From NCBI GenBank assembly GCA_965223325.1, contig CBDCWI010000002.1, forward strand, positions 3,488,850 through 3,552,849: a stretch of DNA of 64,000 bases. The letters are read 5' to 3'. Each line of letters begins with the position of its first letter. The first letter of the stretch is position 1. Made by a program: the position numbers and the translations under genes. Positions 1 through 23,811 of the stretch are shown here, piece after piece. Source of the DNA: Candidatus Multivoradales bacterium. Its GTDB lineage: Bacteria; Acidobacteriota; Thermoanaerobaculia; Multivoradales; Multivoraceae. The notes under the pieces are model-generated. The model made no database searches, was not told where the DNA came from, and saw only the letters and a list, made by a program, of their open reading frames with translations.

Positions 1-729
1 GGGCTGCTCCTCATCGCTGTCTTCCTTGAGAGTGGCGTAGTAAGCACTTGGCCACACTGACAACTCGATGGCTGCGATGTCTACGACTCTCGGGAGTTCG
101 TAGAGCGAGTACGCCCCCGCCGGGTCCGATGTCTGCGACACCGCAACGCACAGAAGCTCTTGCTCACGGCGATTATCCCAGTCCGGAATGTCGATGTAGT
201 TGAAACCGGCATGTCCAAGAACCCAGCGATCGGCCATCGGGTCCCAATTCACCGTTGGTTCCCCTGCAGAGGTCGTGCAAGGACCGGTCGCCCAGAGATC
301 ACTCAGCGAAAAGGGCCCGACGAGAAGCTCCCCCGTCTTCGAATAGATCGCGACGCCTTCTGGGCTGACTACCTGAACGTAGTGGTTAGGCCCGACGTCA
401 CCCCGAGGGTCGGGCGTAGGGCACTCTACGCATGTCCCCTCCGCGCTCATCCCCTCCCACGAAAAGGGTCGGCCTGCGCGGACTCCGCGGCGGGCAGTTT
501 CGAAGTCCGGTTCGAGATCAACGAGGGGCGAACCGGCACCTTCAAGCGCGCGCATCGACGGGAGCGTGTCCACGCGCGGGCTGACCTTAACGGAAAGCAG
601 AAATCCACCGCACGGGTGAGGGTGGTTTGCCGATGCACTGCCGACGGCCAAAGCCAGCGCGAGGATGGCCGCGCCCGATGTCCGCCCGGTTCGGGAAGAG
701 GGCTGACGCTTGGAGAGAAACCGTGACAT
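1..729 (-). CDS. Hypothetical secreted protein, 5' part (gene runs off the left edge). It is not in the ORF track because there is no in-window stop.
   Basis: My translation of the minus strand from ATG at 729-727 reads MSRFLSKRQPSSRTGRTSGAAILALALAVGSASANHPHP... as one uninterrupted frame down to position 1. The N-terminus is signal-peptide-like (basic n-region, Ala/Leu h-region). The residue composition is protein-like, unlike the Arg-rich plus-strand ORF 160..726 covering the same DNA. Confidence 0.5.
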   Translation of the reverse strand, partial: MSRFLSKRQPSSRTGRTSGAAILALALAVGSASANHPHPCGGFLLSVKVSPRVDTLPSMRALEGAGSPLVDLEPDFETARRGVRAGRPFSWEGMSAEGTCVECPTPDPRGDVGPNHYVQVVSPEGVAIYSKTGELLVGPFSLSDLWATGPCTTSAGEPTVNWDPMADRWVLGHAGFNYIDIPDWDNRREQELLCVAVSQTSDPAGAYSLYELPRVVDIAAIELSVWPSAYYATLKEDSDEEQP

Positions 730-1020
730 AAAGGCCGAAAAGGATGAGAACCCAAGGGCAAGGGGACCCGCCTGGTCGCCCGCTAGAGTTTATCAGGCCA
801 CTGTTCTCTCAACACCGCCGGTTAGAGGCAGGCGTACGGTCCAGCCGATCCGTCGTCCAACTCAAGCCCCCCTGGGTACCGGCAGGGTTGTTCCACCTTG
901 GGCACCCGACGAGCGCTGCCGCCGGTCTCAGTTACTCGCGTCTTCTCTCGCTGGGCTTTTTCGAGCACCCGAGGCCTAGCTCATGACGACACCCCCGGGC
1001 GTCTATTGACTCCCTACGAA

Positions 1021-2430
1021 CTAGTCCTCGTCGACGTAGCCGAGGGCTTCGAGCTGCTCGCGGACCTCGTCGGGCATGGTTGCGACATCGCGGAGCTTCG
1101 AAGCCAAGCCGCGGCGCTCCTTTCGCAGTCGATCAATCGTCTCTAGGTGCTCTGCGGCACCAGCAGGTTCCCCGGAGACGAGTTCACCGTTCAAGAGGTT
1201 GTAGGTCGTCTTCGAGCCAACGCGGGTGTCCCACACCACGTGTCGCGGTTCCGGACTGAGGGAGGACACTGCCATCAGGCCGCCGTAGGAGGAGTAGGAA
1301 ACCCTTGTGCCCCCCTGGCGTGATGTCCCATCACAGATCGAACGAACCCCGCACTGTCCATCCCAGGCCTTCTCGGCAGGCACCTCCGCGATCGCCGCCA
1401 GAACGGGCGCGATGTCGACCTGCGGACACAGGCCATCTTCTACAACGCCCGTCGGCTCCCACGAACGGTGATAGAGAAGCGGAACTTTGACCAGTTCTGG
1501 CTCGAGACCTTTTCCGTGCCCCAAGCGACCGTGCTCCAGGAAAAGGTCGCCGTGGTCTCCGGTGACGACAACAACGAAGCGCTCGCTAGAGGTCTCAGCG
1601 AGCTGCACAACCCTTTCGACAAGGGAGTCCACGTAGCGTATCCCCGCATCGTAGAGGTCAACCATGTATTGGAGGTCGGTCTCTGAAACGCGCTCCGGCG
1701 GAACACCGTTGCGATAGCGATCCACCCCCTTCGCACCGACAAACATCTCGCGAAACTCGCGCGGCGGCCAGTAGGGATTGTGTACATCCATGAAGTGGAG
1801 GTACGCGAACCAGGGTCGCTGGGGCGGATCTCGCTGCGTCCAGGCCTCGAAGGCTCGCACGACCGTTTCACCCTTCGCATATGCGATCTTCTTGCGGCGC
1901 CCCTCCTCACGATGGCTGTCGAGCTCCAGCTGGGCAACCTCGAACAGCTCCGGGTAGCCCGAGCCGTCGGCCATGTGAGGGTTCGTCAGCACCGCGAACG
2001 TCTCGTAGCCTGCGCTGGCGAATGCTCCGGGGAGGGTCTCGGAGATCGGGACTAAGGACGAACGCCGCTCGGTGCCTGAGGAGGTGGCGACCACCGGGGG
2101 AGGCGACATACTGGTCAGCAGGGCAGCGGTCGAGAGGAAGGTCTGAGAGCCATGGGAGAGCCCGACGCGACAGCTGACGCTCCGTGAGGCTAGCTGGTCG
2201 AGGAAGGGGCTGACGGGACGCTGATACCCGGCAAACCCGAGGTGGTCGCCACGAAGCGCATCGATATTGATGAGGAGGATGTTCGGGGCCCTCTTCTCGC
2301 CCGTTTCTTCGCCCACTGGGTTCGAAGCAGACGAATGGCCAGCTGGGTCCGGAGAGCACGAGCCGAGCGTGACCGCCGCAGAGACGACCAGGACAACGAG
2401 AATCTCGTGGCATCCGCGGGGAATGGTCAT
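1021..2430 (-). CDS. Sulfatase-family (alkaline-phosphatase superfamily) protein with N-terminal signal peptide; possible lipoprotein. Paralog 1.
   Basis: ORF 1021..2469, probable start at internal ATG 2430 (MTIPRGCHEILVVLVVSAAVTLGSCS...). The metal-site block NILLINIDALRGDHLGFAGY and the rest of the sequence are typical of the sulfatase / phosphotransferase fold. No canonical C-x-P-x-R formylglycine motif was seen. The C-terminal tail is ...EQLEALGYVDED. Confidence 0.7.
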   Translation of the reverse strand: MTIPRGCHEILVVLVVSAAVTLGSCSPDPAGHSSASNPVGEETGEKRAPNILLINIDALRGDHLGFAGYQRPVSPFLDQLASRSVSCRVGLSHGSQTFLSTAALLTSMSPPPVVATSSGTERRSSLVPISETLPGAFASAGYETFAVLTNPHMADGSGYPELFEVAQLELDSHREEGRRKKIAYAKGETVVRAFEAWTQRDPPQRPWFAYLHFMDVHNPYWPPREFREMFVGAKGVDRYRNGVPPERVSETDLQYMVDLYDAGIRYVDSLVERVVQLAETSSERFVVVVTGDHGDLFLEHGRLGHGKGLEPELVKVPLLYHRSWEPTGVVEDGLCPQVDIAPVLAAIAEVPAEKAWDGQCGVRSICDGTSRQGGTRVSYSSYGGLMAVSSLSPEPRHVVWDTRVGSKTTYNLLNGELVSGEPAGAAEHLETIDRLRKERRGLASKLRDVATMPDEVREQLEALGYVDED

Positions 2431-2641
2431 TTGGCTGGGCTCCGGCTCGTTGGTTTCGCAAAGAGGCAAGAACCTAACAGCTCGAAGCTACACGTTCCAA
2501 GCCGAAGCGCCCGAGTCTGAGGAGCCCTGCCAATGGAGTACCGCAGCTGGCAGCACACGGGTACAAACGGAAGGGCCACCCGAGGGTGGCCCTTTCTATT
2601 GCCAGACTTCGCAGTCTCGCGTTCTTCTGGCTAGGCGCTGC

Positions 2642-3289
2642 TCAGGGGCTGAGCGTGCGAAACGACACGAAATCGTCGAAGTAGTGTGAGCCGACCGTAC
2701 CGGCATCCACACTGCTCGCCAAGAGACCGACCTTCACATTCTTGACGCCCTGGGAGGCGGTGGGGATTTCCGTCTGCTCCCGGATGGTCGCATCGTCGAC
2801 CATGATCCGCAGCAGACCATCCGTGGCACCGGCTGACGCTGCCGCGCGGAACTCGATCGTGATCTTGTGGGCCTGGTTCGGCTGCAGGTCGATGACGCCA
2901 GTCTTGCGGCGCTTGGTTCCGCCCGTCGCCTGGTACAGGGCGCGGATGTCGTAGCCGCTGCCGCCAGCCTTGCGGCGGAGCTGAGCCGAAACCACGCGAT
3001 TCCCGTTGTTGGAGTCGTTCGTGGTGCTGAAGATGATGTGACGGGCGCCGATGTCCATCGTCATGTTGTTGACGTTGAACATGAAGGAGGCGGAGTAGAC
3101 CGGCTCCTGGGCCGGGGTGTCGTCCTGGACGAAAGCATTCGTCTGGGATCCGTCTGCGGTTACCTCGAGGCCGAAGTTCCCGGCCATTGCAGCGTTGCCG
3201 TTGACGTCAAGGGACGAGTCCGCAACTGCTGCCCCGGCAAGACAGAGCAGGCCCGAAAGGGCGATGGTCATAGTTCTCTGAAGTTTCAC
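2642..3289 (-). CDS. Secreted hypothetical protein (Asn/Thr/Gly-rich; fold prediction is inference)
   Basis: ORF 2642..3340. AGGAGA lies 6 nt upstream of GTG at 3289, giving VKLQRTMTIALSGLLCLAGAAVA... as a signal peptide. The gene sits 10 bp downstream of the anti-sigma gene on the same strand. I recognised no catalytic motif. Confidence 0.55.
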   Translation of the reverse strand: MKLQRTMTIALSGLLCLAGAAVADSSLDVNGNAAMAGNFGLEVTADGSQTNAFVQDDTPAQEPVYSASFMFNVNNMTMDIGARHIIFSTTNDSNNGNRVVSAQLRRKAGGSGYDIRALYQATGGTKRRKTGVIDLQPNQAHKITIEFRAAASAGATDGLLRIMVDDATIREQTEIPTASQGVKNVKVGLLASSVDAGTVGSHYFDDFVSFRTLSP

Positions 3290-3350
3290 GTTTCTTCTCC
3301 TTTGGGCTTCAGCCCGGGCGGGCCGGGTCCTTGAATCCATTGTTGGGTTG

Positions 3351-3842
3351 TTACTGTTGGGTTGAGTCTTCCGAGATCGTCAGCCGCGCCGCCGGGCCCA
3401 GCTCGCCGTCTTCGAAGTCAAAGGTCGAGAGTGGCACCGCCTCTACTCCTGCAACTGTTGGGTTGGCATCCGGACCCCCTGCCTCTATCAGCGAATCAAA
3501 CGCACCTCCCGCGGCGGCGAGAATGCCTGAGAGTGCGAGCACACAGGCTGCTGCGGCCAGAGGAATTCTGGCCTTGGCCGTCACCTCGGCGGATGGAGCC
3601 ACGGTCGCCAGGTCCCAACTCACGGCTTCGACCAGCTCGCGGCATTCGGCACAGGAAGCAACGTGCCGCTCCACTGATTCAGAAACACATGATTTGCCAT
3701 TTCTTGCGCCGAGTGCGTGCTCGACAAGGGCGTCTGCATCAGGATGCTGGTCGAGCGCCTTGAGCACCTGAGCGAAGGCCGTCTCGGCACCTTGGGGGAC
3801 AGCGTTTGCGGCTTTGTCGAAGTCTAGGGTTGAGTGACTCAT
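3351..3842 (-). CDS. Putative anti-sigma factor (zinc-binding H-x3-C-x2-C motif, single TM helix)
   Basis: HVASCAECREL matches the ZAS-type HxxxCxxC motif. There is one hydrophobic segment IPLAAAACVLALSGILAAAGGAF. The gene lies directly downstream of an ECF sigma gene on the same strand. Confidence 0.55.
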   Translation of the reverse strand: MSHSTLDFDKAANAVPQGAETAFAQVLKALDQHPDADALVEHALGARNGKSCVSESVERHVASCAECRELVEAVSWDLATVAPSAEVTAKARIPLAAAACVLALSGILAAAGGAFDSLIEAGGPDANPTVAGVEAVPLSTFDFEDGELGPAARLTISEDSTQQ

Positions 3843-4010
3843 CTGGGGTTCCTCTGGCCTCGGGCTCCCTGCCCGGTTGCTCTATAGTCGAGCGCCCGTG
3901 GCTTTTGTTACCGACTTTCTTGAGGTGCCCACAAGACGTCCCGATTCTCGGCCTTCCCCGTGCGAGAAGCGTAGCCGCCGGTCGACCCCCCGGTCGTTGC
4001 CGCTCTCAGA

Positions 4011-4559
4011 CTACTTGGCGCCTGGACCCTCTTCAAACAATCGCGCCCGTACCCCGAGGGCAGCCTTCCGACACCGGCTGATTCGCACCCTCAATGCCCC
4101 CTCTTTGATGCCCAGGGCGGCTGCCATCTGCGTGTAGTCCTGACCCAGCGCGACCCGGCGCAGCAGCTCCAGGCACTCGGGCTTCAGCTCCTCCTCCAGC
4201 GCCCGGAGCAGGCGGTCGGTGTCGGCGGCACCGAGTTCTGCGGCTCGAGGGTCCTCGCCCGCGATCTCCGTTGCCTCATCACCAAGGGACTCGCTGGGCC
4301 TGCGACCCCGAAGCCTCACGCGGTCGATGCACTTGTAGTGCGCGATGCGGCGGGCGTAGCTCGCCAAGGTGCTTTCGCCGCGAAAGCGACCCTCTCGAAC
4401 CGCAATCAGTAGGGCCGAAAGGGAGTCCTGCTCGACGTCTTCGAGGTCGCCTGCGGCAAGGCTGTGGGCGGAGAAGGCGACGCGGATGGCTCGCCGTACC
4501 GCCGCGACAACCTCGGCGTCACCGGCGAGGAAGCGCGCGCCGTCGCTCTTCTCGGTCAT
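4011..4559 (-). CDS. ECF-type RNA polymerase sigma factor (sigma-70 regions 2 and 4)
   Basis: ORF 4011..4721. The real start is most likely ATG 4559 (MTEKSDGARFL...), which forms an ATGA overlap with the stop (4558-4556) of the upstream 1080-aa gene. Region 2 is LLIAVREGRFRGESTLASYARRIAHYKCIDRVR. The region-4 HTH is LGQDYTQMAAALGIKEGALRVRISRCRKAL. Confidence 0.8.
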   Translation of the reverse strand: MTEKSDGARFLAGDAEVVAAVRRAIRVAFSAHSLAAGDLEDVEQDSLSALLIAVREGRFRGESTLASYARRIAHYKCIDRVRLRGRRPSESLGDEATEIAGEDPRAAELGAADTDRLLRALEEELKPECLELLRRVALGQDYTQMAAALGIKEGALRVRISRCRKAALGVRARLFEEGPGAK

Positions 4560-7500
4560 GCACTTGCCCGGCCCGCAGCCCTCGACTGCTGTCCGAGGAC
4601 GCGGAGTTCGGAGGCTGCGGCTGCTTCGATGGTGAAGCGGGCAGCGATTCGCTGCCCGCGAGCTGCGAGTAGCTTGCGCAGGTCCCCGTCCTCGACCAGG
4701 CGCTGGAGGGCAGACAGGCAAGCACTCCGATCGGCTGTGTCAACGACCAGAGCGGTGTCGCCATCGATCGCGTACTCACTGGCGCCGCCAGCCTTCGGAA
4801 CGATGACGGCGCAGCCGCAGGCCATCGCCTCGAGGCCAGTGCGGCCGAAAGCCTGGTAGTGCGAAAGGTCGACGAACACGTCGGAGCGTTGCAGGAGCCC
4901 GGCCACGCCCTCCCGTGTCATAACGCCGCATCGTTCGAATGTGCCGTCGGTAGCAGCCTCATAGATCGGGTCATCGACTGGCAAGCCAAACGTCAGAACT
5001 TCTACGCCCGAAGGGTACTCGCGAGCGATCGCGCGAAGTACCTCGAGCGTGCCTTCGGCGTTGCGCCGCGGAGTGCTCGGCCGGAGCATCGCAGCAACAC
5101 GGACCGCTCCGGTGGCTGGCTCGCGGCCCCGGGGGTTGTAGACCGAGTGGTCGATGCTGGGCGTCACCTTGGCCACCGGAACGCCATGCTCCTCGAACAC
5201 CTTGGCGCGAATCCAATCGGTCTTGGCGAACAGCTGCGACCGCGGGACCCGAGAGTAGGACAGCCGCGCCTCGCGCTCGAGATTCGGATCGTGCGCCACG
5301 ATCCTCGGTTCGTAGTCCTGGACGTAGTACCCCAAACCGAGGTCAGGAAAGCTGCGCGACAGCTGCTCGAGGAGCTTGACGGAGGTAAAAATCGTGGCGA
5401 CGGCATGGGTCGCCTGGCGTGCGAGCCGGGCCAACTCATCAATCCCCTGAAAGCCGACGAAAAGGTCCGCCGGAACAGATGGGTAGTTGTCGAGGAACCA
5501 ATGGCGGTGCTGCTTGGGAACCGCGATGCGTGCCGCAGCCCCTAGCGCGCGCATGCCCAGCGCCTCCTGAACGATCGAATGCACGCCGCCGCCGCCGCGA
5601 CTGACCGGAAGAATAAAGAGAACCGACATGGCCTCGGGATCTGGGTCGACACCTGCTCCGGCGATGGGCGCTGCACGATCGATTCGGCCGAGGGCCTCCT
5701 GAATCCGAGCTCGCACCTTCGCCATCTCAGGGTTGTGGCGCATGAACTCGCTCGCCTGCTTGATCACCTCTGCGCCGTGCTTCTCGTCGAAGGCCTGACG
5801 GCTGCTGCTGGCGAGCTCGCGCCGGCGCTCGTGGCTGTAGCTCTTCGATTTGGCGTGGAAGACGAAGACGTCGTCGACCACCGCAAGTTCGAATCCTTCT
5901 GCCCGCGCGCGCAGGCAGTAGTCGTTCTCTTCGCCGTAGCCACGCGGGAAGGACTCTTCGTCGAGCAACCCGATCCGGTCGAGAAGCTCGCGCCGGATCA
6001 TGAAGCAGAAGCCGTTGAGAAACGGCATACGCGGCCGTGCACGGGCCGACGCCCGCTTCACCACGTCGTCCATTCCGTTGACACCGAGACCCTCGGGCAA
6101 CTCGTTGACGGCCCAGTCGCCCGCTTCGTCGAAGCGCTTGGGTACCGACTGGTAGCTCGCCGCGTTCGACAGTGGCCCGACGACGCCCAGCTTGCCGCTC
6201 GAAGCACCGGCTTCCACCATCCGATCGAGCCAGCCGAAAGGCACAACGACGTCGCTGTTGAGCAATACCACCCAGTCGGCCTCGCTCGCTCGCAGGCCAC
6301 GATTAGCGGCCCGGGTGTAGCCGGTGGCCCGGTCGCTTCGCAGCAGTTGGCTCTCGTGCCTGGTTGCAAAACCTCGCAGGTACTCGGCCGTTTCCATGTC
6401 CGAACCGTCATCGACGATATAGAGCGTGTACTGTCGCCGGGTGTTGCGAACCAGCGATTCGAGACAAGCTGTCACATCCTCGAGGGCGTTGTGAACACAT
6501 ACCACGACGTCGACGGTGAGTTCGTCGACCGACCTGGCGCCGGCGATGCTTTCCGGCGCAACTCTGGGCCCGGGAGCAGTGGCTGTAGATGTGGATGTGG
6601 ATGTGGATGTGGATGCGGGCGCCACGCTCAGCGGGCGAAAAAGGCCTTGGACCCGATTGCGAAGGCCCCTGAGCTTCCCGATCAGAAGCCAGCTGCGCGA
6701 CTCGTAGATCGCCCGCAGCTGCTGCTCGAGCCGGCGCTCTTTCCCCTTTCTGCGCTCATAGGCTTTTGAGTACTCGCTCTTCTCGCGACGCACCTTGCGA
6801 AGCGCGCGGGCAGCGAGCCGGTGACGGTCGATGTACTCCTCGAGTTCGCGCTTCTGTCTCTGGAGCTTCTCGTTGGCCGCGGCCAGGGCGGCTCTGAGTT
6901 CGCGCTCGTCCTCTCGGCGGCTGGCAAGCTCGTCGGCCAGCTGTCGCAAGATGCGCCGCATATCGGTATCGCGAACCGCTATCTCCTTGGAGTCGGCCGC
7001 CATCTGCTCGCGCCGCTGCCGTTCGCGCTGACGGCCGATTTCAACCCGAATCCTTTCGGACTCGATGGTTTCGATAATCGCCTCGCGCGTTTCCCTGCTA
7101 TCGAGCCGTTCGGCAAAGGCTGCCAGTGCCGGCGATGTACGAAGGCGCTCCTCGGGCAGGAGGACGGCGAGGCCATGAAGGCCACGCACGACCCGGAACC
7201 GAATGTCGCACTGTGTTCCCGCCAGGAAATCCTCGACCGCGGTGAGGACACCGTTCCTCTCGCCGCCTTCGACTGCCGCGTGGTGAAGGTGACCGTTAAG
7301 ACCGCCGGCATCAACCAGTAAGGGATGGTCCGGGTGCACACCGCGCCGGGCAAAGGGTTGCCTGTCGAGTTCTGGAATGCGGTCGGGCTCGTAGTAGAGG
7401 TCTCGCCGCCCGTAGGGCCAGCCGACGTCATGGAGCAAGACCACCGGAAACGGAACGCCTGCGCGCTGGCTGATCTCGTGCAGAAGGCGAAGCTCGTGAA

Positions 7501-7798
7501 AGACGGTGTACCAGTTGTGGTCTCCGTCGACCAGCGCCACGTCACACGCCGGGAGACCGGGAAGGACGTCGTGGCTCGTGCCTCGGTGAAAAACGAGCGC
7601 CGGGCCCCACTCCTGCTGCCACTCGTCGACGTCGTACTTCGGCAGCGGGTCGATGACGTGCAGCGTTGCGGCGTTCTGGCGGCAGTATCCGAGCAGCTCC
7701 CGCGTTTGCAGACCGCCGTCAGAACCGATTTCAACCAGAACTTTGGGCGACGTCGCCTCGAGCAGCGGCTCGGTGACGGTCTTCCAGAACCTTCTCAT
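4556..7798 (-). CDS. Multidomain glycan synthase with five segments in one chain. Residues ~15-215: class I SAM-dependent (O-)methyltransferase-like domain. Residues ~232-385: coiled coil. Residues 396-406: (ST)n linker. Residues ~428-650: GT2 glycosyltransferase. Residues ~725-1070: GT4 glycosyltransferase. Domain labels rest on motif reading only.
   Basis: Methyltransferase-like N-terminus: VLVEIGSDGG...HVIDP...DVALVDGDH...LLHDVGWPYG. Coiled coil: a heptad-like charged stretch REAIIETIESERIRVEIGRQRERQRREQ...LQRQKRELEEYIDRHRLAARALRKVRREKSEY...LEQQLRAIYESRS. Linker: STSTSTSTSTA. GT2: VVVCVHNALEDV...YIVDDGSD...LLNSDVVV...GFCFMIRRELLDRIG...GEENDYCLRA. GT4: GRTGLEAMACGCAVIV...E-rich C-terminal block. 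The gene lies in the same locus as wzm/wzt. Confidence 0.85.
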   Translation of the reverse strand: MRRFWKTVTEPLLEATSPKVLVEIGSDGGLQTRELLGYCRQNAATLHVIDPLPKYDVDEWQQEWGPALVFHRGTSHDVLPGLPACDVALVDGDHNWYTVFHELRLLHEISQRAGVPFPVVLLHDVGWPYGRRDLYYEPDRIPELDRQPFARRGVHPDHPLLVDAGGLNGHLHHAAVEGGERNGVLTAVEDFLAGTQCDIRFRVVRGLHGLAVLLPEERLRTSPALAAFAERLDSRETREAIIETIESERIRVEIGRQRERQRREQMAADSKEIAVRDTDMRRILRQLADELASRREDERELRAALAAANEKLQRQKRELEEYIDRHRLAARALRKVRREKSEYSKAYERRKGKERRLEQQLRAIYESRSWLLIGKLRGLRNRVQGLFRPLSVAPASTSTSTSTSTATAPGPRVAPESIAGARSVDELTVDVVVCVHNALEDVTACLESLVRNTRRQYTLYIVDDGSDMETAEYLRGFATRHESQLLRSDRATGYTRAANRGLRASEADWVVLLNSDVVVPFGWLDRMVEAGASSGKLGVVGPLSNAASYQSVPKRFDEAGDWAVNELPEGLGVNGMDDVVKRASARARPRMPFLNGFCFMIRRELLDRIGLLDEESFPRGYGEENDYCLRARAEGFELAVVDDVFVFHAKSKSYSHERRRELASSSRQAFDEKHGAEVIKQASEFMRHNPEMAKVRARIQEALGRIDRAAPIAGAGVDPDPEAMSVLFILPVSRGGGGVHSIVQEALGMRALGAAARIAVPKQHRHWFLDNYPSVPADLFVGFQGIDELARLARQATHAVATIFTSVKLLEQLSRSFPDLGLGYYVQDYEPRIVAHDPNLEREARLSYSRVPRSQLFAKTDWIRAKVFEEHGVPVAKVTPSIDHSVYNPRGREPATGAVRVAAMLRPSTPRRNAEGTLEVLRAIAREYPSGVEVLTFGLPVDDPIYEAATDGTFERCGVMTREGVAGLLQRSDVFVDLSHYQAFGRTGLEAMACGCAVIVPKAGGASEYAIDGDTALVVDTADRSACLSALQRLVEDGDLRKLLAARGQRIAARFTIEAAAASELRVLGQQSRAAGRASA
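6585..6614. repeat. Hexanucleotide microsatellite (GTGGAT)n, about 4-5 units. It lies inside the synthase gene and encodes the (ST)n linker.
   Basis: Plus strand reads gtagat gtggat gtggat gtggat gtggat. The minus-strand reading ACATCC repeats gives TSTSTS. The repeat is in frame, since 6 is a multiple of 3. Confidence 0.85.
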
Positions 7799-7807
7799 GC
7801 CACGGTT

Positions 7808-9265
7808 CTACTCGACATAGCCGAGCGCCTCGAGTTCGCGGCGCTCCTCTTCGGAGTAGTCGCGTCCTGTATTGTCGCGGACCGTCACCGACGGCTTCCC
7901 CATTTCTTGATGGATGAACGCGAGGTCGCGCTTGAAAGCTGTTTCGAGATCTTGATCCCCTCCGGGGAGTCCCAGTAGTTGCTGACCATCCATGTGCGCC
8001 AGTTGTGAGGCATGGGGAACCTCATACTGGAAAATCACTTGCCGATCCTCGCGCAGCAGCGTGACTCCCGAAACCCAGGTCGGGTCGTGCCGAACATGCT
8101 CGGAGATCGCGAAAGGGGGATCTCCGTTGTCAGGGGTCGGTGGAGCCAGGAAGAGAGCCGTTTGGTCGACACCGTCGAGACCATCCGGAACTTCTATGTC
8201 GGCAAGGGTTCCGAGGGTGGGGAACAGATCGATCTGCTCGATGATGGTCTCCTCGAATCGCGGCCCGGCGCCCATGTTTCGAGCCCGAAGCGCCACGGGC
8301 AAGCGCACGACCAGGGGTATGCGCACGACTTCTTGGTGAAGTGAATGGCCGTGCGCCCAGCCACCGCGGTCATAGAGCTCTTCGCCGTGATCGGCCGTCA
8401 CGATGATCAGAAAGTCGTCGAACTGCCCGGCGTCCCGCAACGTTTCGAAGAGGTGCGCAACATGGTCACCGTCGAAATAGGCGAGTTCTGTGTCATAAAG
8501 CGCCCGCGCCTCTTCAATGTCAGCGGGAGTGAGATCGCTCCGCTTCTTGTAGGTGAGCACGCTGAAGTCGACCGTGCTGTCGGTCGTCGGAAAACGGTCC
8601 CGGTAATGCGCGGCCTTGCCCTTCTTGATCACGTAAGGGTCGTGCGGCCCGATGAAGTGAACGTAAGCGAAAACCTTGTCGGCTTCGTCGAGGTCGCTGA
8701 ACCACTTTCGAAAGTGGCGTGCCGCTGGCTTGAGGCGGCCGTAGACTTCGAACCCTCGGCCGAAGCCTTGTTGTTCCGAGATGTGCGAGTTTTCGACAAA
8801 GCCAGCGGTCCTCCAGCCCGCATCTGTGAACGCCTGGCCAAGGCTCGGCACGTCGCTCGGAAAGCTCACCGTGCGCTCCTCTTTCGTGCCATCAGGAAGC
8901 ACCATGTGCCGGCCGACGGTGACGCCGTGGTGGCGCGGGTAGAGCCCCGAAAAAAGCGAAGCGACCGAGGGCTTGGTCCAGTTCGCCTGGGCAAATGCGC
9001 GCGTAAAGACGACTCCCTCGGCTGCCAACGCGTCGATTGTCGGAGTGGTTGGCCGCGGATAGCCATACACGCCGAAGTGATCTGGCCGCGCGCAGTCGAT
9101 CGACACCAGGAGGATTTTCTCGACCGGGCTCTCGATTTGGGCAGCCGGCTCTACCATCCCCCGCCCTTCTCCCGCAGGCGGCGCCGGCGAGCAGGCCAGC
9201 GGGAGCGAGGCCATCGCAACCAACAGGCCAGTGGACCGCGGGCGGCTGAAGAAGCGGGGGATCAC
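7808..9265 (-). CDS. Sulfatase-family (alkaline-phosphatase superfamily) protein with N-terminal signal peptide. Paralog 2.
   Basis: GTG start at 9265 gives MIPRFFSRPRSTGLLVAMASLPLACS. The block KILLVSIDCARPDHFGVYGYPRPTTPTIDALAAEG is sulfatase-fold like. Overall architecture and length match paralog 1. The C-terminal tail ...RELEALGYVE is nearly identical to paralog 1. Confidence 0.7.
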   Translation of the reverse strand: MIPRFFSRPRSTGLLVAMASLPLACSPAPPAGEGRGMVEPAAQIESPVEKILLVSIDCARPDHFGVYGYPRPTTPTIDALAAEGVVFTRAFAQANWTKPSVASLFSGLYPRHHGVTVGRHMVLPDGTKEERTVSFPSDVPSLGQAFTDAGWRTAGFVENSHISEQQGFGRGFEVYGRLKPAARHFRKWFSDLDEADKVFAYVHFIGPHDPYVIKKGKAAHYRDRFPTTDSTVDFSVLTYKKRSDLTPADIEEARALYDTELAYFDGDHVAHLFETLRDAGQFDDFLIIVTADHGEELYDRGGWAHGHSLHQEVVRIPLVVRLPVALRARNMGAGPRFEETIIEQIDLFPTLGTLADIEVPDGLDGVDQTALFLAPPTPDNGDPPFAISEHVRHDPTWVSGVTLLREDRQVIFQYEVPHASQLAHMDGQQLLGLPGGDQDLETAFKRDLAFIHQEMGKPSVTVRDNTGRDYSEEERRELEALGYVE

Positions 9266-9348
9266 GGGGGTCCTATCGGGACGTTTGCCCGATGCATTGG
9301 GGGCGTCTTGACGGATTCTGGATGGAAGCAGCAGGGCCAGGACTGTGG

Positions 9349-10665
9349 CTAGCCAGCCGAAAGCAAGGAAAAATACTGCGCCGCCATGCTAGCGCAGTCC
9401 TCCAGTTCGATGCGCTGAACTCGCTCGACGCCAGTCAGCCACTTCTCCCGATTGCCAACAAGCGACTTGATCTGTGCAAGCACATCCTCAGGAGCCGTTG
9501 GGGATACCGTCCACCCTCCGCCGGTTTCGATGATGCGTTCACCGACCGCCCCACGATCACTGGCGAGCACGGGGACGCCGAGGGCTAAGACTTCTGTCAG
9601 TGTGTGGCTCCAGGTTTCGGACCAGATGGGGAGAAGAATCGCCAGGCTGGGCTGAATCCGCTCCACCAGCCCGGGAAGTTCTGTCGGCGCATAGGGCCCG
9701 TGCTCCACCATAACGCCATGGGCGGCGTAGCGGCTGAGCTCTTCACAGTGCGGGCCGAGGTGGTGAAGAACCAGCTTCGGGCCGCCGCGCAGGCTTTCCT
9801 CTAGAACCGCCGCCAACTCGTTGCTGCCCTTGTGTCGATCGAGCTTCCCTAGGGTCACGATCCGGATGGTCTCGCCCGCTACCGGTGGCGCCGCGAGATC
9901 GTGGCGCTCGAGATCGCGGCCATGCGGAATCCGGTGGATACGATCGGCGAGCGACGGCAGGCTGCGGGCAAGAATCTCTTGCGACGACCATGAGGTCACA
10001 ACAACCGCCGAAACCTGCGCGAGGGCTTCCTCTACTTCCTGGACCCACTGTGCCCGGTAGCCCGACTTGAGAACCGGCAACCCTTCGAGCCAGGGCACCG
10101 GAAGTTGGCACTGGCCTCGCCCTTCGGTGCACTGACCACCGCAATCCCTGGCCTGGTCGTCGAGCAATACGAAGCTCGGACACACCAGATAGTGGTCGTG
10201 GGCCGACACGACGACGCGCACCCCGCGCTCGGCGCACAGGTCGAGCAGGTCGAAGGTGTGCGCGAGCAGGTGCCTGAGGTGCACCGCGTTGGGCCTTGTG
10301 GCATCGAGAACCCCACGGTAGAGCTCGCGAAAATCGGCGCGGCGATGGTCCGTCGCCTGCCAGGGTCGTCGATGGTGGAAGGCTCGATCAACCGCGCGAC
10401 CCTTACTGTCGGAGCCTTCGAGGACCATGCGAAAGGGGTCGGCCCGCAACACTGAAGCGTCGAGTCTCGTTCCCAGTGCGGCCAACAGGTCGCGGCTGGT
10501 TCTGTCGACCCCACCCGGCGCATCGTGGAGAACGGTGAGCACGCGCAGCGCATCCTTCTCGGCCCCAACCATCTGTGGCCGGAAATCGCGCTCTCGGCCA
10601 AGGAGCGTCTCGCGCAGCCTGCGCGCAAAGCGGTGCCGGCGACTTCCCCAGGCGAGCAGGTCCAC
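9349..10665 (-). CDS. GT4-family (group 1) glycosyltransferase
   Basis: LRVLTVLHDAPGGVDR N-terminus. GT4-type C-terminal half (...LGPHCEELSRYAAHGVMVEHGPYAPTELPGLV..., E-x7-E-like region). The start may instead be ATG 10572 (MVGAEKDALRVLTVL). Confidence 0.75.
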   Translation of the reverse strand: MDLLAWGSRRHRFARRLRETLLGRERDFRPQMVGAEKDALRVLTVLHDAPGGVDRTSRDLLAALGTRLDASVLRADPFRMVLEGSDSKGRAVDRAFHHRRPWQATDHRRADFRELYRGVLDATRPNAVHLRHLLAHTFDLLDLCAERGVRVVVSAHDHYLVCPSFVLLDDQARDCGGQCTEGRGQCQLPVPWLEGLPVLKSGYRAQWVQEVEEALAQVSAVVVTSWSSQEILARSLPSLADRIHRIPHGRDLERHDLAAPPVAGETIRIVTLGKLDRHKGSNELAAVLEESLRGGPKLVLHHLGPHCEELSRYAAHGVMVEHGPYAPTELPGLVERIQPSLAILLPIWSETWSHTLTEVLALGVPVLASDRGAVGERIIETGGGWTVSPTAPEDVLAQIKSLVGNREKWLTGVERVQRIELEDCASMAAQYFSLLSAG

Positions 10666-10666
10666 G

Positions 10667-11512
10667 CTAGTGCCCGGAGAGTTGGGTCTGAAGGTGGGCG
10701 CGCAGCCCTGCGAGGGGGTCGGCTTCGAGGAACTGCGAGACGCTTCCCAGGTAGTCCGGGTGCCGCACTTTCAGGACCCTCAGGCCGCGCCACAACAACC
10801 AGCGCTTCTTCCAACCGATCGAGCGCGACCCATGGTGGAAGACATAGACCGAGTCAGCGAGGACATGACGCATCCCGAGCGCGGTCGCTCGCACGCAGAA
10901 ATCGTTCTCTTCGCCCGCACCCTCCGGAAACGCCTTCTCGTCAAAGCTACCCACTGCCGCGAGCGCCGCTCGGCGCACGAAGAGACAGAAGCCGTGGCCG
11001 GTGGGGACTTCGGGAGAAAGCCCTGGGCTCCACTTCGCCACCAACGCCGCCATGCGCGCGTCGTCTATCGAAATGTTCGGAGCCGGCCCGTCGTAGGGCA
11101 CCGAAAAGGGGCCGGCGTTGTTCGACAGCGGGGTGACGGTAGCGATCTTCGGATCGGTCGCAGCCACCGCAACGATTCCGGCCAGCCACCCCTTCGTTAC
11201 CCGAGTGTCGCTGTTGAGCAGCACCACATCGCGGTCGCGAGCGAGGGCGCATCCTGCATTGATGGTGGCGGTATAGCCACGCCGCTGCGGATGAATGTGG
11301 AGCGCCCAGCCTGGGTTGCGGCGCCTGGCTTCTTCGAGTTGTGGTCGCGTCGAGTCATCGCGGCTCGCATCGTCGATGAGAAGAACCTGCTCGCCCTCGG
11401 CATGGCGTTCGAGCGCAGCGATACACTCCGCCACAACCCCCGGGGCGCCGTGGACTGGTACGACCACCGTCGTGTTGGCTACAGATGGGCTGCCTGATGA
11501 ATCTGAGGGCAT
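10667..11512 (-). CDS. GT2-family glycosyltransferase
   Basis: ORF 10667..11941. I trimmed the start to ATG 11512 (MPSDSSGSPSVANTTVVVPVHGAP...) because the longer N-terminus overlaps wzm and is low-complexity. GT2 motifs: LLIDDASRD, LLNSDTRV, GHGFCLFVRRAAL, EENDFCVRA. Confidence 0.7.
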   Translation of the reverse strand: MPSDSSGSPSVANTTVVVPVHGAPGVVAECIAALERHAEGEQVLLIDDASRDDSTRPQLEEARRRNPGWALHIHPQRRGYTATINAGCALARDRDVVLLNSDTRVTKGWLAGIVAVAATDPKIATVTPLSNNAGPFSVPYDGPAPNISIDDARMAALVAKWSPGLSPEVPTGHGFCLFVRRAALAAVGSFDEKAFPEGAGEENDFCVRATALGMRHVLADSVYVFHHGSRSIGWKKRWLLWRGLRVLKVRHPDYLGSVSQFLEADPLAGLRAHLQTQLSGH

Positions 11513-11515
11513 GGA

Positions 11516-12274
11516 GTGCGCCGCCTCACCGACCTGATCCTCTACAAGACCTACGCTGACCTGAAGTCGGAGTCCGAGCGGACCTACGTCGGTTTCCTGT
11601 GGTGGGCTATCGAACCGGTCATCGCGATGGCGGTGTACTACGTGGTCTTCGAGCTGGTCTTCCAGCGCGACGTGCCCAACTATGTCACCTTCCTTTTCGT
11701 GGGTCTGGTGCCGTGGCGCTGGTTCAACACCAGCGTGATGCGCGGGGCGAATTCGATCATCGGCGCGCGGGGCCTGATCCAGCAGGTTTACGTGCCGAAG
11801 GTGGTCTTCCCGCTGACCAACTTCGTCGTCGACACCATCAAGTTCCTCGTCGTTCTCCTCTTGGTGTTGATCGTCGTTCGCGTCGGCGACTTTCCCATCG
11901 GTGCGCCGTACCTCGCGTTTCCCGTGTTGCTTCTGGTCCAAGGATTGTTTGTTGTGTCGCTAACCCTCCTCATCGCCGCAGTCGCTCCCTTTCTTCCAGA
12001 CGTTCGGATCGTGATCGAGAACGTCATGCGGCTCCTTTTCTTCCTCTCCGGCGTCTTCTACGACATCGGCGACATGTCCCCCCGCATGCAGGCCTGGTTT
12101 CGAATCAACCCGATGACGACCATCATCGAGGCTTACCGCGACATCCTCATGCACGACGAATGGCCGGCTTTCGGAGCGCTGGCTGTCATCACCGTCTTGT
12201 CGCTCATGATTCTGGCGCTTGCTGTCTGGCTGCTCCGGCGGCTCGACTTCGCCTACGCCAAGATCGCCCTCTAG
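11516..12274 (+). CDS. wzm: ABC-2 type polysaccharide export permease (Wzm-like)
   Basis: LILYKTYADLKSESERTYVGFLWWAIEPVIAMAVYYVVF matches the conserved Wzm N-terminal block. About six hydrophobic segments. GTG start. The ATP-binding partner follows immediately. Confidence 0.8.
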   Translation: MRRLTDLILYKTYADLKSESERTYVGFLWWAIEPVIAMAVYYVVFELVFQRDVPNYVTFLFVGLVPWRWFNTSVMRGANSIIGARGLIQQVYVPKVVFPLTNFVVDTIKFLVVLLLVLIVVRVGDFPIGAPYLAFPVLLLVQGLFVVSLTLLIAAVAPFLPDVRIVIENVMRLLFFLSGVFYDIGDMSPRMQAWFRINPMTTIIEAYRDILMHDEWPAFGALAVITVLSLMILALAVWLLRRLDFAYAKIAL

Positions 12275-12290
12275 AGTGTCTGAATCCGTC

Positions 12291-13097
12291 ATGCCTGACA
12301 CCGAACTCAATGCGGACAGGGACTCCCCGGCGCCCGTGGTCGGCGAAACCCCTCACGGGCGGCCCATCCTGTCGCTCGAAGAAGTTGGCGTGTCGTATCG
12401 CCGCCGGCGGGGGCTCTTTTCGCGCCCGACCGATCTGTGGGCAGTGCGCTCAGTAACGATGGACATCTACGAAGGCGAAACCGTTGGCGTGATCGGCCGC
12501 AACGGTGCGGGCAAGAGCACTCTTCTCAAGGTGCTCGCCGGGATCATCAAGCCTGACCGCGGACACCTCGAGGTCCACACAGACCATCGGGTGTCCCTGT
12601 TGTCACTCCAGGTGGGTTTCTTGCAGTACCTGTCGGGGCGCGAGAACGTCTATCTGAGCGGTCTCCTGCTCGGTATGACCCGCCGCGAGCTCGACGCCAA
12701 GATCGACGACATCATCGCCTTCGCAGAGCTCGATCAGTTCATCGATGAACCGATTGGCACTTACTCGGCGGGCATGCGCGCGCGGCTCGGGTTCTCGACC
12801 GCCTTTCACGTCGATCCCGAGATCCTCCTGGTCGATGAGGTGCTGGGCGTCGGAGACGCCGAGTTCGTCGCCAAGTCACAAGCCGTTATGCGCGAGCGCA
12901 TCCGGTCCGATAAGACGGTGGTTCTGGTCTCGCACAGCGCCGCCTCGATCCGCGAGCTTTGCGATCGCGCCGTGTGGATCGACAAGGGGCGCTCTATGGC
13001 TTCTGGCCCAACCGAAGACGTTCTCGTCGCCTACATCGAGTCAACCAAGAAGGCCAAGACCAAGCCACCCGAAGAAGAAACCAAAGAACCGGGCTAG
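12291..13097 (+). CDS. wzt: ABC transporter ATP-binding protein (Wzt/KpsT-like; short form without C-terminal carbohydrate-binding domain)
   Basis: ATG 12291 (MPDTELNAD...) lies 17 nt after the wzm stop. Walker A GRNGAGKST, signature YSAGMRARLGF, Walker B ILLVDE. Only 268 aa, so there is no room for a C-terminal carbohydrate-binding module. Confidence 0.85.
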   Translation: MPDTELNADRDSPAPVVGETPHGRPILSLEEVGVSYRRRRGLFSRPTDLWAVRSVTMDIYEGETVGVIGRNGAGKSTLLKVLAGIIKPDRGHLEVHTDHRVSLLSLQVGFLQYLSGRENVYLSGLLLGMTRRELDAKIDDIIAFAELDQFIDEPIGTYSAGMRARLGFSTAFHVDPEILLVDEVLGVGDAEFVAKSQAVMRERIRSDKTVVLVSHSAASIRELCDRAVWIDKGRSMASGPTEDVLVAYIESTKKAKTKPPEEETKEPG

Positions 13098-16504: not shown

Positions 16505-16725
16505 GTCGACCCGCGGCCATCCTTGCGCACCCGCAAACTTTTTTTTGCTGACTCGGATCGCGTAAGTTTCCGTGCTGCGTCACCTTACGCCGAACGACAA
16601 GTGCACCTGGGATAATTTCTCTCTTCAAGACGTTCCCACGCCGTGCATCGCGTGGTATGTTGCCCCTCCTTCGCGGCGCATCCATTGATTCAGTTTGGGG
16701 AGTCGGTAGGTAACCGACAAAATCG

Positions 16726-16758
16726 TTTTTCCGCATTGAGGAAAACTCTGTGGAAAAA
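16726..16758. promoter_or_regulatory. DnaA-box-like 9-mers upstream of dnaA: TTTTCCGCA at 16727-16735 and TGTGGAAAA at 16749-16757
   Basis: These are 7/9 and 8/9 matches to TTATCCACA / TGTGGATAA. A T8 run at 16539-16546 is the most AT-rich spot in the mutY-dnaA spacer. Confidence 0.35.
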
Positions 16759-16774
16759 GACAGGTGGGGTGTAC

Positions 16775-19522: not shown

Positions 19523-19610
19523 TTCACACGCCTCCCCTTCCAGACCACGCGAGCGCGGCAGTGACTTCGGTGCAAGATGACCGGAGTCTCGGAGCGGACG
19601 GTGGGTTCGA

Positions 19611-20720: not shown

Positions 20721-20732
20721 CCCCTTTGTTTT
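20711..20732 (+). terminator. Weak intrinsic-terminator-like hairpin at the recF stop
   Basis: aggggAATAAcccct followed by ttgtttt. The TAA stop is in the loop. Confidence 0.3.
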
Positions 20733-20747
20733 CAAGCACTTAAACCC

Positions 20748-20933: not shown

Positions 20934-23555
<2,622 letters not shown>

Positions 23556-23558
<3 letters not shown>

Positions 23559-23763: not shown

Positions 23764-23811
23764 GGCCACCCATCAGAACCCTCTTTCCCACCACCTTGAC
23801 CACAAGCCCTT

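Follow-up and report, generated by a model that had tools for sequence, protein, structure and literature searches.

Within the 64-kb stretch of DNA that we analysed (the window), the gene for an ECF sigma factor stands between a gene for a 1080-aa multidomain glycosyltransferase, which an earlier note on this DNA had called a synthase, and genes for an anti-sigma factor, a secreted protein and a sulfatase-family lipoprotein, the minus strand being the coding strand for all genes of the cassette (Table 1). The module is a familiar form of bacterial sigma/anti-sigma signalling, and it is the wiring that is unusual. The glycosyltransferase is composed of a Methyltransf_24 domain (residues 22–124), a coiled coil (about 240–370), a GT2 domain (431–656) and a GT4 domain (about 900–1061); its sequence matches in the PDB are to the GT2 domain of chondroitin synthase and to GT4 enzymes, and it has an orthologue with 78% identity at the locus of a related genome (L001). 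ABC-2 permease and ATPase genes adjoin it, and the operon upstream of the sigma gene is one for glycan assembly of the ABC-transporter type (GT2, GT4, sulfatase and the methyltransferase–coiled-coil–GT2–GT4 protein). Ahead of the glycosyltransferase gene, at a distance of 10 nt, stands the second sulfatase-family gene, which is missing from the corresponding position in the gene map of L001. At the other end of the cassette, the lipoprotein sulfatase has a probable start at ATG 2430 and a lipobox-like LGSC. Since the cassette is followed by sulfatases also in L001, L006 and L024, this gene is possibly the last one of the sigma-dependent unit.

Table 1 Features of the sigma factor locus, in window coordinates.
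Feature	Position	Strand	Basis
1080-aa multidomain glycosyltransferase (the “synthase” of the earlier note)	4556..7798	−	Pfam and NCBIfam matches
ATGA stop/start overlap, glycosyltransferase/sigma	4556..4559	−	direct sequence reading
ECF sigma factor, 182 aa	4011..4559	−	TIGR02937, PDB matches, homologues
Sigma/anti-sigma spacer, 168 nt	3843..4010	−	
Probable sigma-dependent promoter, GTAAC(3911–3907)-N16-CGACTA(3890–3885)	3885..3911	−	motif comparison
Anti-sigma factor, 163 aa	3351..3842	−	
Secreted protein, signal peptide and ConA-like beta-jelly-roll	2642..3289	−	
Sulfatase-family lipoprotein	1021..2469	−	PF00884 at 4.9e-33
Second sulfatase-family gene	7808..9265	−	PF00884 at 8.3e-44

The sigma gene and its junction with the glycosyltransferase gene

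The earlier assignment of the gene to the ECF sigma factors is borne out by a TIGR02937 score of 47.4 bits (cutoff 42.9; residues 22–165) and by weak but full-length PDB matches to SigE and sigma-E structures (sigma residues 22–170), with the Pfam scores for Sigma70_r2 (22.1, cutoff 24) and r4_2 (19.5, cutoff 25.7) both falling slightly under threshold. Its homologues, at 36–46% identity, form with it a small family whose members come mostly from Thermoanaerobaculia and other Acidobacteriota, with three invariant cysteines (C77, C129 and C163), and in all family loci the sigma gene is followed by a zf-HC2 protein, at a spacing of 168 nt in the window.

Direct reading of the sequence confirmed the 4-nt overlap that had been described between the sigma and synthase genes: plus-strand 4556–4559 is TCAT, hence ATGA on the coding strand, in which TGA (4558–4556) ends the glycosyltransferase ORF and ATG (4559–4557) begins the sigma ORF. 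The two genes thereby show the same-strand stop/start overlap of a coupled gene pair, and L001 keeps it in the same GCATGA junction (10001–10004). ATG 4559 is the only workable start of the sigma gene. The in-frame TTG at 4721 was rejected, as it lies 53 codons upstream and within the synthase gene, and so was the next one, TTG at codon 65, with which region 2 would be lost; a start well downstream of 4559 with a promoter of its own, which the earlier note had named as evidence against its reading, was not found. The N-terminus (M-x9-FLAGDA) agrees with that of all relatives (M-x8–12-LLAGDA), and the 182-aa product is identical to the recorded protein P0001.

ATGA overlaps of 4 nt are among the commonest layouts for same-strand gene pairs, and their normal meaning is co-transcription. 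The overlap by itself is therefore not statistically remarkable; the unusual point is the identity of the two genes that are joined, a sigma factor and a giant glycosyltransferase. Because it is present in L001 and missing in all of about 20 more distant family loci, it is lineage-specific as far as these sequences go. The overlap is known from two related genomes only, those of the window and L001. The genes upstream of sigma in the other family loci are unrelated ones, and a general link between sigma and synthase was not borne out.

Two features of the junction are hints of translational coupling between the synthase and sigma genes: no clear AGGAGG-type Shine-Dalgarno was seen by eye ahead of ATG 4559 (GGGCAAGTGC), and the final 25 codons of the synthase gene show few synonymous changes (4/22 versus a background of 0.43, P = 0.013, in a post hoc comparison of two sequences). 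This constraint at the 3′ end of the synthase gene could equally mark an internal promoter, as would be expected if the overlap were mere compact packing, with sigma produced mainly from its own promoter in that 3′ end and at a level untied to the synthase. We consider such packing fairly unlikely. It would accord with all the other family loci, where sigma has its own upstream region beside unrelated or divergent genes, and with the TAGGCT/TAGCCT-like -10 hexamers that were seen by eye in the upstream regions of relatives. However, no TAGxCT hexamer was visible in the ~50 nt of synthase sequence upstream of the sigma ATG, a crude consensus scan of positions 1–13000, junction and gap included, returned no sigma-70-type promoter and, for junction and gap, no terminator-like site either, and co-transcription is what ATGA overlaps usually entail. 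Sigma has no viable start other than ATG 4559, which L001 also keeps, so that expression of sigma together with the synthase operon is the simplest reading.

The anti-sigma factor and its secreted partner

The anti-sigma gene follows, as had been reported, after a gap of 168 bp (3843–4010), with its ATG at 3842 and an in-frame TAG just upstream. The protein is oriented N-in/C-out and consists of a single cytoplasmic zf-HC2 unit, one TM helix (residues 93–115, nt 3498–3566, Kyte-Doolittle 2.24) and an outer tail of 48 aa that contains STFDFEDGELG (nt 3396–3428), which confirms the single helix and the short tail (~45 aa) described before. The zinc-type motif described with them was found too, as HVASCAEC (H60-x3-C64-x2-C67, nt 3642–3665) with a further histidine, H33, upstream (x26), and its spacing was not lost on realignment, an outcome that the earlier note had said would count against it: L001 reads H-x24-H-x3-C-x2-C. 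In proteins of the ChrR/RsrA type, an upstream His or Cys ligand stands about 23–26 residues before H-x3-C-x2-C, and the window anti-sigma has both the motif and the upstream ligand of zf-HC2/ZAS proteins. It scored 15.4 bits against PF13490 (gathering 22.2), over the last 13 profile positions only; the 13 syntenic anti-sigmas all pass this profile, and their own profile matches the window protein with 93.7% probability (hhalign, E 1.8e-7), in support of the earlier call of an anti-sigma of the zf-HC2 type. A phmmer scan of 1.84 billion proteins returned one true relative and some low-complexity matches, a word-index search for homologues only the protein itself, and a single-sequence AlphaFold model (pLDDT 43.7) was unusable. 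By these profile comparisons it is a divergent single-repeat zf-HC2 protein, which is predicted to bind sigma and zinc.

Compared with its nearest two-repeat relatives, the window protein is without the first HC2 repeat, its HC2 unit aligning with the second. A first repeat hidden in the 168-nt gap was rejected, as three-frame translation gave no trace of it. The loss of the repeat, the Pfam score under threshold and the identity to L001, which breaks abruptly at the sigma stop from 86% in sigma to 36% in the anti-sigma, would suit a decaying remnant that no longer inhibits, leaving sigma as a simple relay through which a glycan operon that is on turns on the secreted protein and sulfatase. 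To this we attach a very slim probability, given that the ORF is intact and has a Shine-Dalgarno, that neither the window nor L001 has lost any of the four putative zinc ligands, the TM helix or the tail motif, and that single-repeat anti-sigmas are the norm in L007–L014.

From the short tail, the earlier note had concluded that redox or zinc is sensed rather than a ligand, which would make the anti-sigma a ZAS sensor like RsrA or ChrR, paired with a sigma that is translationally coupled to the synthase. ChrR has a cupin domain, and RsrA is a soluble thiol switch, in which zinc-ligand cysteines form a disulphide under thiol stress. Like the ZAS proteins (RsrA, ChrR and RslA; PF13490), the window anti-sigma combines H-x3-C-x2-C with an upstream His at 24–26 residues and is encoded beside an ECF sigma; unlike them, it is membrane-anchored, has a conserved outer tail and stays under the Pfam threshold. 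A redox or zinc sensor would be in keeping with the ATGA overlap as sole sigma start, with the four zinc-type residues in the window and L001 and with a weak N-terminal similarity to ChrR (TIGR02451, E 0.062, profile positions 1–56 of 216), but we judge it quite unlikely. The HxxxCxxC motif is generic to this anti-sigma domain (13/13 syntenic relatives) and therefore no mark of redox sensors, the C-terminal cupin of ChrR is absent from a protein that ends 48 aa past its TM helix, and the strong helix with its outer tail does not fit a soluble protein of the RsrA type. In addition, the short tail has a motif that is kept in about 20 loci and tracks a dedicated secreted partner, and the predicted promoter covers no thiol-stress or metal genes. 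The step from a short tail to redox or zinc sensing was thus not borne out; the tail motif and its co-occurrence with the secreted protein point instead to an anti-sigma that senses outside the membrane, and we infer that its zinc site is structural.

That a secreted, beta-rich protein is encoded next held true, but its spacing of 10 bp did not, being that of the longest ORF (ATG 3340). Translation more likely begins at GTG 3289, which, as in L001, has AAGGAGAAG ahead of it, or else at ATG 3271, which gives the 209-aa recorded product P0014, so that 61–79 nt separate the gene from the anti-sigma gene. The protein has a signal peptide, an all-beta AlphaFold model of moderate confidence and the C-terminal end YFDDFVSFRTLSP. 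The model has the beta-jelly-roll of ConA-like polysaccharide lyases (PL7, PL14, PL18 and similar); sequence identity to lyases is 7–17%, and searches of Pfam and NCBIfam with E up to 10 gave no family. We describe the predicted fold as ConA-like and polysaccharide-lyase-like and do not file the protein as a lyase.

The motif in the anti-sigma tail, F-x-F-E-D-G-x-L-G (FDFEDGELG in the window), is family-wide; the window tail is without the Trp that follows it in most relatives. Motif and secreted protein occur together in nearly all loci, are both absent in L002 and L015, and stand beside an unrelated sigma type in L024. A fusion ORF of anti-sigma and secreted protein in L007 was rejected as a wrong-frame artefact of high GC content. 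The pairing is a candidate for a new extracytoplasmic sensing module in Acidobacteriota, a phylum in which, to our knowledge, almost no signalling systems have been characterised.

A conserved motif between the sigma and anti-sigma genes

The upstream ~100 nt of the 168-nt spacer are unconserved and without significant fold, and the downstream part contains GTAAC-N16-CGACTA, from which the anti-sigma ATG is 42 nt away. With up to 3 mismatches allowed, the window has one copy of the motif, where 0.05 would be expected, and in L001 both blocks and their spacing are kept inside an otherwise unalignable spacer. Across 317 kb of family loci we counted 15 copies versus 0.1 expected, and all 15 either stand where sigma meets anti-sigma or precede an unlinked gene for the secreted protein (twice in L004, once in L005). 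The family form, GTAAC-N16-CGAC(T/A)A, is found between sigma and anti-sigma in every family locus; PWM matches outside the training set (L007–L010, L012 and L014) are at the same position, and four independent metagenome loci (L030, L034, L035 and L036) also have it. The anti-sigma start mostly follows the -10-like block by 18–65 nt; for L007 and L010, whose start codons are uncertain, the figure is 5–6 nt. The sequence between the blocks is variable.

Target promoters of ECF sigma factors carry AAC in the -35 and CGT in the -10 element (PMC8103513); here the AAC of the -35 is present, and the -10-like block is CGAC, not CGT. The motif is probably this sigma's own promoter. Such promoters had been expected upstream of the synthase and sulfatase genes, where none was found: neither a search at up to 3 mismatches nor the PWM gave a second copy ahead of the synthase, sulfatase or GT genes, and the sole strong copy in the 64 kb is that of the gap. 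The PWM gave one other match in the window (score 19.3; 32185–32225, minus strand), which falls within a type III PKS gene in antisense orientation and which we put down to chance. Upstream of sigma itself, the position that positive autoregulation would call for, the PWM scan found no motif in the window, L001 or any of the relatives. With the motif at the sigma/anti-sigma junction and never upstream of sigma, the sigma factor is probably not self-activated, and would drive its inhibitor and the secreted protein.

We regard it as very unlikely that the motif instead serves a different sigma factor or regulator, or that it works as a termination or RNA signal linked to the stop codon of sigma. 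In most relatives the TAA stop of sigma falls within the GTAAC block, so that conservation could be partly positional, and the CGAC of the -10 block departs from the ECF pattern. Yet the motif is kept in the window and L001 at about 100 nt from the sigma stop, three copies precede unlinked secreted-protein genes far from any sigma stop, and L024, which shares the anti-sigma tail and secreted protein with the family but has a sigma of another type, is without it. The gap yielded fold z-scores of 0.04 and 0.62, no terminator-like site in a consensus scan and no Rfam match, so that we rejected a terminator or structured RNA there, and the motif has no dyad symmetry. According to the usual ECF template, sigma and anti-sigma are co-transcribed from a self-activated promoter upstream of sigma, whereas in this family the comparative evidence places the cognate promoter between the two. 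Pipelines that scan only upstream of sigma would therefore miss it and label the group motif-less.

Wiring of the cassette and comparison with known systems

Taken as a whole, the locus is best explained, with moderate probability, as a sigma/anti-sigma/secreted-partner cassette that is appended to a glycan operon, has its promoter in the gap and serves extracytoplasmic, glycan-related sensing. The sigma gene would in this lineage have become the last cistron of the glycan assembly operon; since its only usable start overlaps the glycosyltransferase stop, it would be transcribed with the operon, and it is probably translated by ribosomes terminating on the glycosyltransferase. Free sigma would transcribe the genes for the secreted ConA-like (lyase-like) protein and for its own inhibitor, and perhaps the sulfatase gene as well, a circuit of negative feedback plus output whose input level would be set by the glycan operon, and the signal, which may be glycan-related, would be sensed outside the membrane via the secreted protein. 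With a sigma factor attached to a glycan polymerase gene, the locus offers a testable example in which a pathway would set the dose of the regulator that may monitor it.

A narrower and rather improbable version is that the cassette is a split glycan sensor reporting on the cell's own polymer. Through the ATGA coupling, the amount of sigma would then follow that of the glycan polymerase at a constant ratio, and FDFEDGELG in the anti-sigma tail would act as a beta-strand-like peptide that docks on the lyase-like jelly-roll protein. When that protein binds or cleaves the exported glycan, the tail would become free or exposed and sigma would be released, to switch on no genes other than those for its inhibitor, for the sensor protein and for a sulfatase. 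L024 and the abrupt fall in identity at the sigma stop suggest that the sensor half (tail and secreted protein) could be swapped from one sigma family to another.

The preferred reading, that of a cassette appended to the glycan operon, has a parallel in E. coli, where the rseA P3 promoter lies within rpoE and drives rseA-rseB-rseC (PMC8595263). In both cases, here by prediction, a sigma-dependent promoter transcribes the anti-sigma and its periplasmic or secreted partner and not sigma, and a membrane anti-sigma gene is followed by the gene for that partner (RseB in E. coli, the jelly-roll protein here). The systems differ in that E. coli has a sigma-E-dependent promoter upstream of rpoE, hence positive autoregulation, of which none was found at this locus; in that RseA is not a zf-HC2 protein, whereas the window anti-sigma is; in the partner, which is ConA-like or lyase-like and not RseB-like; and in the attachment of sigma to a biosynthetic operon.

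In the SigI/RsgI systems of Clostridium thermocellum, polysaccharides are sensed by a module that is fused to the membrane anti-sigma RsgI. The window shares with them an alternative sigma factor, a membrane anti-sigma linked outside to a carbohydrate-type beta-sandwich, and a glycan context. Here, however, the outer part of the anti-sigma is no more than a 48-aa tail bearing a short motif, the beta-sandwich is secreted as a protein of its own, and the sigma families differ.

Roughly half of the ECFs are predicted to be autoregulated, and exceptions exist (PMC8103513, PMC7826278). Like the non-autoregulated FecI-like and ECF32-type factors, the sigma gene of the window has no cognate promoter upstream; those factors use FecR/TonB signalling or transcriptional cascades, whereas here the predicted cognate promoter would have been retained and shifted to the anti-sigma side.

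The glycosyltransferase to which sigma is joined also has known counterparts by domain content. WbdD/WbdA and WbbB are coiled-coil chain-terminating and polymerising glycosyltransferases of ABC-transporter-dependent glycan pathways, and the 1080-aa protein resembles them in having a terminal-modification domain, a long coiled coil and two GTs. We know of no regulator gene that overlaps a gene of the WbdD/WbdA or WbbB type. The terminal-modification domain is a methyltransferase in the window protein and a sulfotransferase in its counterparts in L024 and L010.

Sigma gene and synthase junction

By its sequence, the system is one of an ECF sigma factor, a zf-HC2 anti-sigma factor and a putative feedback promoter before the anti-sigma gene; its unusual traits are the attachment of the sigma gene to a glycan polymerase gene (here the synthase) and the pairing of an anti-sigma tail motif with a secreted protein. 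The earlier note's observation that the sigma gene begins within the synthase stop codon, at an ATGA overlap, is confirmed, with two bases common to the synthase TGA and the sigma ATG at 4559. The sigma factor exceeds the cutoff of the NCBIfam ECF superfamily model TIGR02937 (47.4 against 42.9 bits, residues 22–165), falls marginally below the Pfam thresholds for region 2 and region 4, and gives weak, full-length matches to solved ECF sigmas (mycobacterial SigE and E. coli sigma-E). The start at the overlap is correct, as the start codons of the sigma frame are TTG 4721, ATG 4559 and then none before codon 65, the N-terminal residues align one to one with those of all relatives (M-x8-12-LLAGDA), and an identical 182-aa sequence is already recorded as a called protein.

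Genes and other features of the cassette region and the rest of the window
Feature	Position	Strand	Description
Sulfatase-family lipoprotein	1021–2469	−	after the secreted protein
Secreted protein	2642–3289 (likely)	−	beta-jelly-roll ORF
Direct repeat CAACCCAACA	3339–3364, 3454–3465	−	flanks anti-sigma stop codon, recurs within the gene
Anti-sigma	3351–3842	−	163-aa ORF; ATG 3842, 168 nt past sigma stop
Sigma	4011–4559	−	182 aa; opens at ATG 4559, ends at 4011
Synthase	4556–7798	−	1080 aa: N-terminal Methyltransf_24, coiled coil, GT2, C-terminal GT4
Second sulfatase	7808–9265	−	precedes the synthase
Terminator-like hairpin and T-run	9375–9398	−	3' end of GT4 gene
dnaA, dnaN, recF, gyrB, gyrA	16643–26367	+	chromosomal origin gene set
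Type III PKS row	31544–35363	+	type III PKS (chalcone-synthase-like), ICMT-family methyltransferase, acyl carrier protein, AMP-dependent ligase

The one close relative, L001 (an ENA metagenome contig, sigma 86% identical), retains the full arrangement, with a 1072-aa glycosyltransferase, an identical GCATGA junction and a 184-nt gap followed by a 163-aa anti-sigma factor, the secreted protein and then sulfatases. About 20 further loci of the sigma family (36–46% identity) come mostly from MAGs of Thermoanaerobaculia and other Acidobacteriota, plus short metagenome contigs. In none of these more distant loci does the synthase lie upstream of sigma, where the neighbour is instead a divergent gene or encodes a reprolysin-like protease, an Ig-repeat protein or a sulfatase, and in all of them the sigma-to-anti-sigma distance is about −4 to 65 nt; the overlap and the long gap are therefore derived in the lineage of the window and L001.

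A link between sigma and synthase is favoured by the ATGA overlap, the sole usable start codon and the junction kept in L001, and a crude scan of the junction region found no consensus promoter. Given that crudeness, sigma could also have an internal promoter in the 3' end of the synthase. Compared with L001, the final 25 codons of the window's synthase have synonymous differences of 4/22 against 0.43 elsewhere in the gene (P = 0.013, for a stretch picked post hoc in a comparison of two sequences); this too counts in favour of the link, and such low change is equally able to mark an internal promoter. On balance, we consider co-expression of sigma and synthase probable. The gene identities, the start codon and, as a probability, the co-expression proposed in the earlier note stand, whereas its promoter location and its redox or zinc sensing do not.

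Synthase-like neighbours recur elsewhere. In L024 (8252–20648), where the tail and secreted-protein pair lies beside a different ECF sigma type with two sulfatases, a 1270-aa synthase of the same design (Sulfotransfer_3, coiled coil, GT2, GT4) is encoded near the cassette on the opposite strand, and in L010 (11751–13169) a sulfotransferase plus coiled-coil protein comes immediately after the anti-sigma. These neighbours make a functional link between cassette and glycan pathway plausible beyond the window and L001 lineage, unlike the overlap. Sulfate or methyl groups may cap the glycans in question.

The family alignment of the sigma factor also contains three invariant cysteines, C77 (HYKCIDR), C129 (PECLELL) and C163 (SRCRKAAL), a feature unusual for an ECF sigma; these residues could make up a metal or redox site within the sigma factor itself.

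A candidate promoter between sigma and anti-sigma

The sigma/anti-sigma gaps of the window and L001 cannot be aligned apart from two blocks, CGGTAACAA-N13-TCGACTAT, which are identical in sequence and spacing in both. The corresponding motif, GTAAC-N16-CGAC(T/A)A, has 15 matches on the two strands of 317 kb of family loci, where first-order Markov simulations predict 0.1. The sigma/anti-sigma junction holds 12 of the 15, and in most relatives the TAA within GTAAC is the sigma stop codon; the other three lie upstream of secreted-protein copies that are unlinked, 7–10 kb off on the other strand, yet carry the motif (L004 has two such copies in tandem and L005 a single one). A weight matrix from 11 sites recovered six loci outside its training at the same relative position, and also finds the motif in the independent metagenome loci L030, L034, L035 and L036. 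The motif is absent from L024, which pairs the same anti-sigma tail and secreted protein with an ECF sigma of another type.

The motif consists of two conserved blocks around a spacer of variable sequence and constant length, lacks dyad symmetry, has AAC in its upstream block, and mostly stands 18–65 nt before the next start codon (L007 and L010, whose start codons are uncertain, have 5–6 nt). Such a layout is that of an ECF promoter by the hallmarks given in PMC8103513, despite a −10-like block that reads CGAC instead of CGT. The stretch that separates the motif from the sigma stop showed no significant fold, terminator-like site or Rfam match. Our reading is that the motif would be the sigma factor's own promoter. 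An ECF promoter had been expected upstream of the synthase and sulfatase genes; no copy precedes either of these or the GT genes in the window, nor any sigma gene in the family loci and window, and the motif is instead at the sigma/anti-sigma junction. From there, a sigma-dependent promoter would transcribe the genes for the anti-sigma and the secreted protein, leaving sigma without autoregulation; E. coli, however, also has a sigma-E-dependent promoter upstream of rpoE.

A weak weight-matrix match in the window (32185–32225, minus strand; AGAACGAAG-N-CGACGACTAA) scores 19.3 against 30–48 for family sites, lies antisense inside the type III polyketide synthase gene and is probably due to chance. 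In the 100 nt upstream of relatives' sigma genes, TAGGCT, TAGCCT, TAGTCT or TAGGAT hexamers were seen by eye 20–40 nt before the start (L002, L004, L005, L007–L009 and L013), and could represent the −10 elements of housekeeping promoters.

Anti-sigma tail and secreted protein

Upstream of the anti-sigma ATG are a Shine-Dalgarno sequence, GAGGAA, and a TAG in the same frame. The product of the gene has H33, H60-x3-C64-x2-C67, one strongly hydrophobic helix (residues 93–115) and a 48-aa tail. It scores below the cutoff of Pfam zf-HC2 (15.4 against 22.2 bits; ChrR model, E 0.062), and matches a profile of 13 syntenic anti-sigmas of relatives, all of which pass PF13490 (best E 7.5e-14), with 93.7% probability (E 1.8e-7). 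The HxxxCxxC spacing is retained on realignment. Several relatives (L002, L004–L006 and L015) have a tandem pair of HC2 units; the proteins of the window and L001 correspond to the inter-repeat segment and second unit in the alignment and lack the first (LLPWLLNGSL...HLxxCxxC), of which the 168-nt gap encodes no trace. Single-unit anti-sigmas are normal in L007–L014. HxxxCxxC is the family signature of the zf-HC2 domain and no evidence for redox sensing; the redox or zinc sensing deduced from the short tail is not supported, and the co-occurrence described below points to extracytoplasmic sensing. The direct repeat at the anti-sigma stop codon suggests no function.

The outer tails of family anti-sigmas terminate in the motif h-h-F-x-x-G-F-E-x-G-x-L-x-x-W, present once or twice and represented by STFDFEDGELG in the window and SMDFEDGTLGEW in L001. 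The Trp after FEDG, present in most relatives' tails, is missing from the window tail. By secreted-protein HMM, a homologue directly follows the anti-sigma in the window, L001, L006–L009, L011, L013, L014, L016, L024–L026, L030 and L036; L027 has a homologue with only a fragment upstream. L002 and L015, whose anti-sigmas are without the tail motif, have no homologue by HMM, and the sole exception is L010, where the motif is present and no homologue was found. This co-occurrence holds across two sigma types, which argues that tail and secreted protein act jointly. In that case sensing would take place outside the cytoplasm and relate to glycans, and the tail may physically contact the secreted protein.

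The product that the earlier note rightly placed after the anti-sigma as secreted has a signal peptide; the note's 10-bp spacing applies to the longest ORF only, which begins 10 nt past the anti-sigma stop. More credible starts are GTG 3289 (after AAGGAGAAG, as in L001) or ATG 3271 (the recorded protein), at a spacing of 61–79 nt. Because the protein has no sequence-family match and 7–17% identity to lyases, we describe it as ConA-like or lyase-like and do not class it as a lyase. Longer homologues carry extra C-terminal domains, namely SLH in L009 (11159–12475) and FG-GAP repeats in L008 (11382–12959), and that of L013 (11230–12591) is, by eye, similar to the SLH-bearing one; the SLH and FG-GAP forms suggest anchoring or location in the cell envelope.

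Identity break and glycan neighbourhood

DNA identity between window and L001 is 70–93% across the GT genes and the greater part of sigma, drops through the final ~60 nt of sigma and is 30–50% from the sigma stop (4011) on (window 2600–5500 against L001 9050–12000). Protein identities are 92% for GT2, 82% for GT4, 78% for the synthase and 86% for sigma, against 36% for the anti-sigma, 35–38% for the secreted protein and 51% for the sulfatase, and the window's secreted protein has its nearer counterpart in L024 (47%), not in L001. The drop has the look of a recombination break or of a sensor half that evolves fast, and the sequences suggest that this half may have been exchanged or be evolving very fast, sigma staying with the glycan genes.

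GT4 and GT2 genes lie further upstream, divergent from an ABC-2 permease, an ABC ATPase and another GT2, a layout that is that of an ABC-transporter-dependent glycan pathway. The second sulfatase, between GT4 and synthase, is missing at that position in L001. Given the terminator-like hairpin at the 3' end of GT4, the sulfatase-synthase-sigma unit may be transcribed separately from GT2-GT4. The divergent ABC-2 permease and GT2 start codons are only about 3 nt apart (L001 4533–4537; window about 11513–11516), so their promoters must be inside each other's coding sequence. The origin gene set lies ~3–5 kb from the glycan cluster, and the type III PKS row is an alkylresorcinol/alkylpyrone-type lipid cluster.
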